Part shown: positions 3,817 through 4,502 of the stretch, piece after piece
Numbering within the stretch: position 1 is the stretch's first letter
How the letters are laid out: every line of letters begins with the position of its first letter
Sequence record: OR062945.1
Reading direction: 5' to 3' (one strand)
Source of the DNA: Escherichia phage 308Ecol101PP
DNA length: 64,000 nt
The notes under the pieces: model-generated
The model's database searches: none
Seen by the model: the letters and a program-made list of their open reading frames with translations, nothing else
Told to the model about the DNA's origin: nothing
Translations under genes and position numbers: made by a program

Positions 3817-4047
3817 ATGTCTACTGAAACTATCGAAAAACTGCAGTCTGAAATCGTTACTCTGAAATCTCGCATTCTTGATACTCAAGACCAAGCAGCT
3901 GCTATCCAGCAAGAATCTCAGCAACTTGGTAGTGCTCTTGCTAAAATCGCTAATCTGGTTGGTATCACTGGCGAATCAGTTAAGATTGATGACCTGGTAG
4001 AAGCAGTACGTGAACTTGTTAAAGCTGAAACCACAGAAGAAGAATAA
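3817..4047 (+). CDS. 57A: Tail fibre assembly chaperone gp57A-like (coiled coil)
   Basis: 76 aa coiled-coil protein immediately downstream of gene 1, as in T4; ...[17 protein letters not shown]... Confidence 0.7.
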
Positions 4048-4502
4048 TGAAATTTGAGGACTTTTCACAAGGCCTCTACGTCGCAGCTAAATTTTCGGAA
4101 TTAACACTTGATGCGCTGGAAGACCTCCAGCGCAAATTAAGAATTCCTAATCCAGTACCACGTGAAAAGCTTCATTCAACAATTTGTTATTCACGTGTAA
4201 ACATACCATATACTACATCTAGTGGTAGTTATTCTGTTGCCGAATCAGGACACTTTGAGGTATGGAAAACTGACGACGGCGCTGTACTGGTTTTAGTTCT
4301 TGATTCTGAATATCTTAGATGTCGTCATCAGTATGCACGAGCTTTAGGTGCTACTCATGATTTCGACGACTACACTCCACATATAACGTTATCATATAAC
4401 GTTGGCCAACTATCATTCAGTGGTGATGTAGCTATTCCGGTTATTCTCGACCGTGAATACAAAGAACCCTTAAAACTAGATTGGGCCGAAGATCTAAAAT
4501 AA
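4047..4502 (+). CDS. 57B-position protein with two H-x-T/S motifs (2H phosphoesterase / LigT-like fold candidate)
   Basis: 151 aa; motifs LHSTICY and PHITLSY spaced as in 2H phosphoesterases; ATGA overlap with 57A. Confidence 0.6.

Follow-up and report, generated by a model that had tools for sequence, protein, structure and literature searches.

The stretch of DNA analysed here (the window) comprises 64,000 nucleotides from Escherichia phage 308Ecol101PP (OR062945.1). Over positions 3000-5300, identity is 99.4% to Escherichia phage PNJ-9, which is T4-like, and 98% to Shigella phage JK45 (Tequatrovirus, Straboviridae), which places the 64-kb window (G+C content, 37%) in the genome of a T4-like coliphage. 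An ORF at 4047-4502 is the subject of this report. The gene order at the locus, gp3 (the tail completion and sheath stabilizer protein, upstream), gp1, 57A, the ORF and ipI, matches that of T4 and JK45, and a first-pass annotation made from the sequence alone was correct in placing the ORF at the 57B position. The features of the locus and of the remainder of the window are collected in Table 1, where the ORF is listed as acb1, the name that is justified below.

Table 1. Coordinates of acb1, its functional segments, its neighbours and other features of the window.
Feature	Position	Strand	Basis or remarks
Gene 1, dNMP kinase	3078-3812	+	phrog_139 E=1.7e-59; JK45/T4 annotation; synteny anchor
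57A, tail fibre chaperone, upstream neighbour	3817-4047	+	phrog_1002 E=8e-26; JK45/T4 annotation; synteny anchor
TAATG junction, 57A stop and acb1 ATG overlapping by one base	4045-4049	+	sequence
acb1 (T4 gene 57B orthologue), CDS	4047-4502	+	ATG start, 151 aa + stop; ORF list, Pfam, PDB, T4/JK45 identity
First catalytic motif, H43-S44-T45, within LHSTICY (T4 Acb1 H44/T46)	4173-4181	+	residue mapping
Second catalytic motif, H112-I113-T114, within PHITLSY (T4 Acb1 H113/T115)	4380-4388	+	residue mapping
C-terminal lid, residues 144-151 (T4/FBB1 Acb1 145-152), including W146 (T4 W147)	4476-4499	+	
10-bp-stem hairpin, acb1-ipI spacer	4524-4550	+	RNA fold -14.3 kcal/mol, z = -3.0 versus shuffles
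ipI, internal protein I/nuclease inhibitor, downstream neighbour	4579-4866	+	Pfam PF11634 IPI_T4 E=1.3e-50; phrog_4363
Small ORFs 3' of ipI (107, 61, 126, 96, 171 aa)	4876-6618	+	T4 trna.2-trna.4 neighbourhood, uncharacterised genes
Two tRNA genes only, Met-CAT and Arg-TCT	6698-6852	+	
Vs.4/Acb2 homologue, cyclic-nucleotide sponge	19241-19507	+	64% identity to T4 Vs.4; Pfam PF24729 Acb2_Tad1_hairpin E=3e-17
Tk.4 orthologue, macro domain	21130-21594	+	83% identity to T4; Pfam PF01661 E=1.3e-5, above cutoff

The stop/start overlap between 57A and acb1 suggests that the two genes may be co-transcribed and translationally coupled, and the same tight 57A-57B arrangement is found in T4 and other Straboviridae. 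A promoter and terminator scan of 2900-5300, which covered sigma-70 promoters and whose coverage excludes T4 middle and late promoters, gave counts not above those of shuffled sequences and nothing specific upstream of acb1. On the downstream side, acb1 and ipI form two adjacent anti-defence genes separated by a 76-nt spacer. The hairpin within this spacer has a perfect 10-bp stem (GGAUGAUGGC...) without a U-tract, was not called as a terminator in the terminator scan, and is possibly an RNA-stability or processing element. It is overlapped by a sigma-70-like match (TTTACA-17-TACTAT, 4516-4544).

Identity of the ORF and conservation of functional residues

The protein encoded by the ORF matches the Pfam family Acb1 (PF23474) with an E-value of 1.3e-58 and a score of 197.3 bits (gathering score, 27 bits), and the match is full-length, with residues 8-149 aligned to profile positions 1-144 of 144. 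No family in NCBIfam matches the protein. The best match in the PDB is Acb1 from Erwinia phage FBB1 (7T26/7T27; E=1.1e-58), with 88 of the 141 aligned positions identical (62%). The product is 100% identical to the 57B product of Shigella phage JK45, and it aligns without gaps over all 151 residues to 57B/Acb1 of T4 (NP_049750.1; NC_000866), with 85% identity and 92% positives. The ORF is thus almost certainly the T4 57B orthologue Acb1 (anti-CBASS protein 1), a small metal-independent phosphodiesterase of the 2H fold that degrades CBASS signals. Like its T4 counterpart the gene lies after 57A and before ipI. At the N-terminus the 308Ecol101PP protein lacks one residue relative to T4 Acb1, which starts MM....

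The residues that matter for Acb1 function are known from the FBB1 and T4 proteins. An HxT/HxT tetrad (H44, T46, H113, T115) forms the catalytic centre. Y12, W74, F107 and W147 provide stacking contacts to the bases of the ligand, E141 recognizes the adenine N6, and residues 145-152 make up a C-terminal lid that shuts over the ligand (PMC9117128). All nine of these published catalytic or ligand-contacting T4 residues (Y12, H44, T46, W74, F107, H113, T115, E141 and W147) are kept in 308Ecol101PP Acb1, where they are numbered 11, 43, 45, 73, 106, 112, 114, 140 and 146, respectively. The tetrad is accordingly complete (H43, T45, H112, T114), and the stacking aromatics Y11, W73, F106 and W146 and the adenine-reading E140 are identical to those of T4. 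Of the 151 positions, 22 differ between the two proteins; the substitutions are mostly conservative and spare every published functional residue. The lid segment is present, with E148 in place of D as the single change relative to T4 (LKLDWADDLK). FBB1 Acb1 (PDB 7T26, apo; 7T27, with 3'3'-cGAMP), which is the structural reference for the fold, the tetrad and the lid, differs in having F and Y at the positions of W73 and F106 of the T4 and 308Ecol101PP proteins, although these positions are aromatic throughout. Conservation of the tetrad extends further, with both His and both Thr residues invariant across nine aligned homologues that represent seven Straboviridae lineages and fall to 34% identity.

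The first-pass annotation had drawn attention to tandem H-x-T/S motifs in LHSTICY and PHITLSY. Both are present, and a motif scan of the 151-residue protein finds exactly two H-x-[TS] matches, HST at residues 43-45 and HIT at residues 112-114. Two such motifs, each on its own lobe of a pseudo-symmetric fold, characterize the 2H superfamily, and support for the fold comes from 7T26. From the length and composition of the protein (5 His, 21 Ser+Thr), ∼0.69 matches are expected by chance, and a Poisson estimate from this value gives two or more matches in ∼15% (about one in seven) of proteins of this kind. The motif pair alone is weak evidence because of this expectation, and it is the homology to the Acb1 family and to 7T26, at the E-values given above, that places the observation far above chance.

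A single-sequence AlphaFold2 model of the protein did not reach a quality suitable for fold searching (pLDDT 39.6, pTM 0.29). Since the model was unusable, the assignment of the fold rests on homology to the crystal structures of FBB1 Acb1, which have a compact 2H phosphoesterase fold (PMC9117128). The same compact fold is predicted for 308Ecol101PP Acb1, and at the level of sequence the matter is settled by 62% identity to a structure determined at 1.1 Å, so that the 2H phosphoesterase suggested by the first-pass annotation is upheld. Relationships beyond Acb1 are harder to see by sequence. When a profile of the nine homologues was searched against the PDB for LigT, cyclic phosphodiesterase (CPDase) and AKAP18, the only match to a classical 2H enzyme was to an AKAP7 domain, which was not significant (E=0.91). 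Because the search gave only this classical 2H match, it is the published structure, and not the sequence, that ties Acb1 to the wider 2H superfamily.

Proposed function of Acb1 in 308Ecol101PP and alternative roles

The sequence of 308Ecol101PP itself establishes which gene this is, that all published functional residues are kept and that the gene order is conserved. What is described for Acb1 as to fold, chemistry, range of substrates and anti-CBASS role in vivo comes from the literature on the T4 (85% identical) and FBB1 (62% identical) proteins. The name Acb1 was given to T4 57B after activity-guided fractionation had singled it out as the enzyme responsible for degradation of 3'3'-cGAMP (Hobbs et al. 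2022, PMC9117128). Its pocket accommodates only cyclic di- and trinucleotides, since larger rings clash, and the enzyme does not cleave cA4 or 3'2'-cGAMP. It does cleave cAAA, for which a possible relevance to type III CRISPR was suggested. The reaction passes via a 2',3'-cyclic phosphate that is opened to a 3'-phosphate by the same active site. Activity is abolished in the H44A variant of T4 Acb1, and the H44A/H113A variant serves as a catalytically dead control. In vivo, T4 lacking acb1 shows a greater than 300-fold defect on CBASS hosts and grows normally in the absence of CBASS (all PMC9117128). The same deletion phage has been used in later work, the Panoptes study (PMC12657218).

By analogy with these proteins, we propose that 308Ecol101PP Acb1 would act as follows. 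Upon infection, the CD-NTases of the host CBASS would make cyclic di- or trinucleotides (3'3'-cGAMP, cUA, cAAA and similar) that switch on cell-killing effectors. The U-shaped pocket of Acb1 would capture the cyclic nucleotide in a manner largely independent of the bases apart from the adenine contact, with Y11, W73, F106 and W146 stacking on the bases, E140 reading the adenine N6 and the C-terminal lid closing over the ligand. Twisting of the adenosine would then direct its 2'-OH at the neighbouring 3'-5' phosphodiester. This attack, over the H43/T45/H112/T114 tetrad, would give a 2',3'-cyclic phosphate intermediate, and hydrolysis of this intermediate would yield a linear 3'-phosphate product unable to activate the effectors. 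With the signal destroyed the effectors would remain silent, abortive infection would be averted and the phage would escape. We infer that the 308Ecol101PP allele matches T4 Acb1 in activity and substrate range, and that it cleaves CBASS signals and affords rescue from CBASS in vivo. Its function is in all probability counter-defence against CBASS rather than against anticodon nucleases, as shown for the 85%-identical T4 orthologue.

Departures from this function can be envisaged. The allele might have a range broadened or shifted to include cGG or 3'2'-cGAMP, or it might have a secondary role in healing RNA ends that carry a 2',3'-cyclic phosphate, and we regard either departure as quite improbable. 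If it were true, secondary end-healing would give the idea of RNA repair a partial footing. No report of 2'-5' ligation or of cyclic-phosphodiesterase activity on RNA ends was found in the Acb1 literature examined.

Another proposal is that of the first-pass annotation, which likened the protein to LigT-type 2'-5' RNA ligases and cyclic phosphodiesterases and suggested a role in RNA repair or the processing of 2',3'-cyclic phosphates, for example to counter host anticodon nucleases. On this reading the protein would act on RNA ends to heal tRNAs cut by those nucleases. The two HxT motifs are indeed typical of the 2H superfamily, and RNA ligase is both the PHROG 755 and the RefSeq family label for the gene. 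The likeness to LigT and the cyclic phosphodiesterase families (PF13563 and relatives) holds at the superfamily level, in the two H-x-T/S motifs, the superfamily fold and the 2',3'-cyclic phosphate chemistry. It fails at the family level, where the match to PF13563 (2_5_RNA_ligase2) is confined to residues 70-131 (E=0.013) and its 15.9 bits fall below the 27-bit cutoff, and where the PDB profile search returned no LigT or CPDase chain, the AKAP7 domain being the sole classical 2H match. The damage done by anticodon nucleases is moreover repaired in T4 by other enzymes, polynucleotide kinase/phosphatase and RNA ligase 1. The proposed chemistry was partly right, since opening of a 2',3'-cyclic phosphate is the second half-reaction of Acb1, but the target of the reaction is a CBASS signal. 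The substrate of Acb1 is a cyclic oligonucleotide messenger and not an RNA end, and its role is immune evasion and not RNA repair or processing. The restriction of the pocket to cyclic di- and trinucleotides makes it less likely that polymeric RNA ends are the main substrate, and T4 lacking acb1 is impaired only in the presence of CBASS, with wild-type growth otherwise (PMC9117128). A role in RNA repair or as a countermeasure to anticodon nucleases is rejected on the basis of the sub-threshold PF13563 match, the CBASS-only phenotype in T4 and the small-ring pocket, and we consider it very unlikely that the ORF encodes such an enzyme. Least likely of all is that 308Ecol101PP Acb1 is aimed mainly at another signal, either cAAA of type III CRISPR, which Acb1 already cleaves and for which relevance was suggested (PMC9117128), or cGG or 3'2'-cGAMP, which are not cut by the T4 enzyme. 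This reading is disfavoured by the mostly conservative nature of the 22 substitutions relative to T4 (15% divergence, 92% positives), by identity to T4 at every published base-contacting or catalytic residue, and by the occurrence of an allele at least 99% identical in 137 records of phages that share the hosts of T4.

Distribution of Acb1 and related phosphodiesterases

A tblastn search with the 308Ecol101PP protein found Acb1 homologues in 1,489 phage records, from phages whose hosts include Escherichia, Klebsiella, Shigella, Acinetobacter, Vibrio and Aeromonas. Identity was at least 99% in 137 of these records and 80-90% in 576, the latter band containing the T4-type allele. The gp3-gp1-57A-57B synteny is conserved in T4 and six other Straboviridae genera. 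The acb1 gene lies directly 3' of the 57A-position ORF in Proteus, Krischvirus, Acinetobacter, Aeromonas, Shewanella and Slopekvirus-type phages, and in these six groups the 57A-position ORF in turn comes after the dNMP kinase position, which is so annotated in most records.

The Slopekvirus-type proteins of Raoultella phage Rpl1 and Klebsiella phage K14-2 (loci L009 and L010, 2459-3082) are 207 residues long, with a C-terminal extension of ∼55 residues past the lid, and the Trp conserved in the lid of T4-type proteins is missing from them. The lid architecture or substrate range of Slopekvirus-type Acb1 may be different. The nine-homologue profile matches the C-terminal ∼120 residues of the portal protein of cyanophage Pam3 (PDB 8HDS chain A, 498-616) with an E-value of 1.2e-9. 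A tblastn match likewise falls within the annotated portal gene of Synechococcus phage Yong-M2-251 (OM868082.1, 55221-55499). These matches suggest that an Acb1-like 2H domain is fused to the cyanophage portal protein, where it would possibly serve as a virion-delivered anti-signalling enzyme.

Among proteins of known structure, a 165-residue protein deposited as Anti-CBASS protein Acb1 (9Q2G/9Q2Y) resembles 308Ecol101PP Acb1 in a profile search (E=3.4e-8) with both HxT motifs aligned, although it is distant (single-sequence E=0.007) and the alignment is confined to query residues 7-119. Outside phages, a summary (PMC12064943) of work on the poxvirus cGAMP phosphodiesterases (Hobbs et al., Cell) reports a phosphoesterase fold shared with Acb1, aligned active-site residues and a lid, and the ability of the poxvirus enzyme to substitute for acb1 in a recombinant phage. 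These enzymes differ from Acb1 in having the lid at the N-terminus and in acting in a eukaryotic host, in the cGAS-STING pathway.

Annotation of acb1 and other features of the window

The gene, its structure, mechanism and biological role were already published in 2022 (PMC9117128), and acb1 is not a new RNA-repair enzyme. The databases lag behind this work. RefSeq labels the 57B products of JK45 and T4 as RNA ligase (loci L001, 4048-4503, and L002, 4953-5411), a label taken from PHROG 755, while the acb1 product is labelled hypothetical protein, cyclic phosphodiesterase or RNA 2',3'-cyclic phosphodiesterase in many GenBank records. The label Acb1 is absent from all of the records listed. The RNA ligase and phosphodiesterase labels are inherited at the family level and are not experimental results, and the lag in annotation, with its RNA ligase and hypothetical protein labels, explains how an RNA-repair hypothesis could arise from the sequence alone. 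The gene is a textbook phage counter-defence factor. Assigning it in 308Ecol101PP is of value mainly for bookkeeping and opens no new question.

The window also encodes a homologue of T4 Vs.4 (Acb2). Acb2 has the same target as Acb1, the CBASS signals, and is carried by the same phage, as it is in T4. Whereas Acb1 degrades the signal, Acb2 sequesters it, and the fold of Acb2 is unrelated (PF24729). Hence, 308Ecol101PP, like T4, has both a degrader and a sponge, encoded ∼15 kb apart, and the pair bears on host-range prediction and on the design of phage therapy against E. coli that carry CBASS. The Tk.4 orthologue further downstream is possibly an ADP-ribose-processing or anti-defence enzyme.

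Between ipI and the tRNA genes lies a run of small ORFs, of which the 107-, 126-, 96- and 171-residue products were scanned against Pfam and gave no match, and the 107-residue product matches only PHROGs of unknown function. The tRNA genes themselves are arranged as in JK45, whereas T4 has a cluster of eight together with segB and two small stable RNAs.
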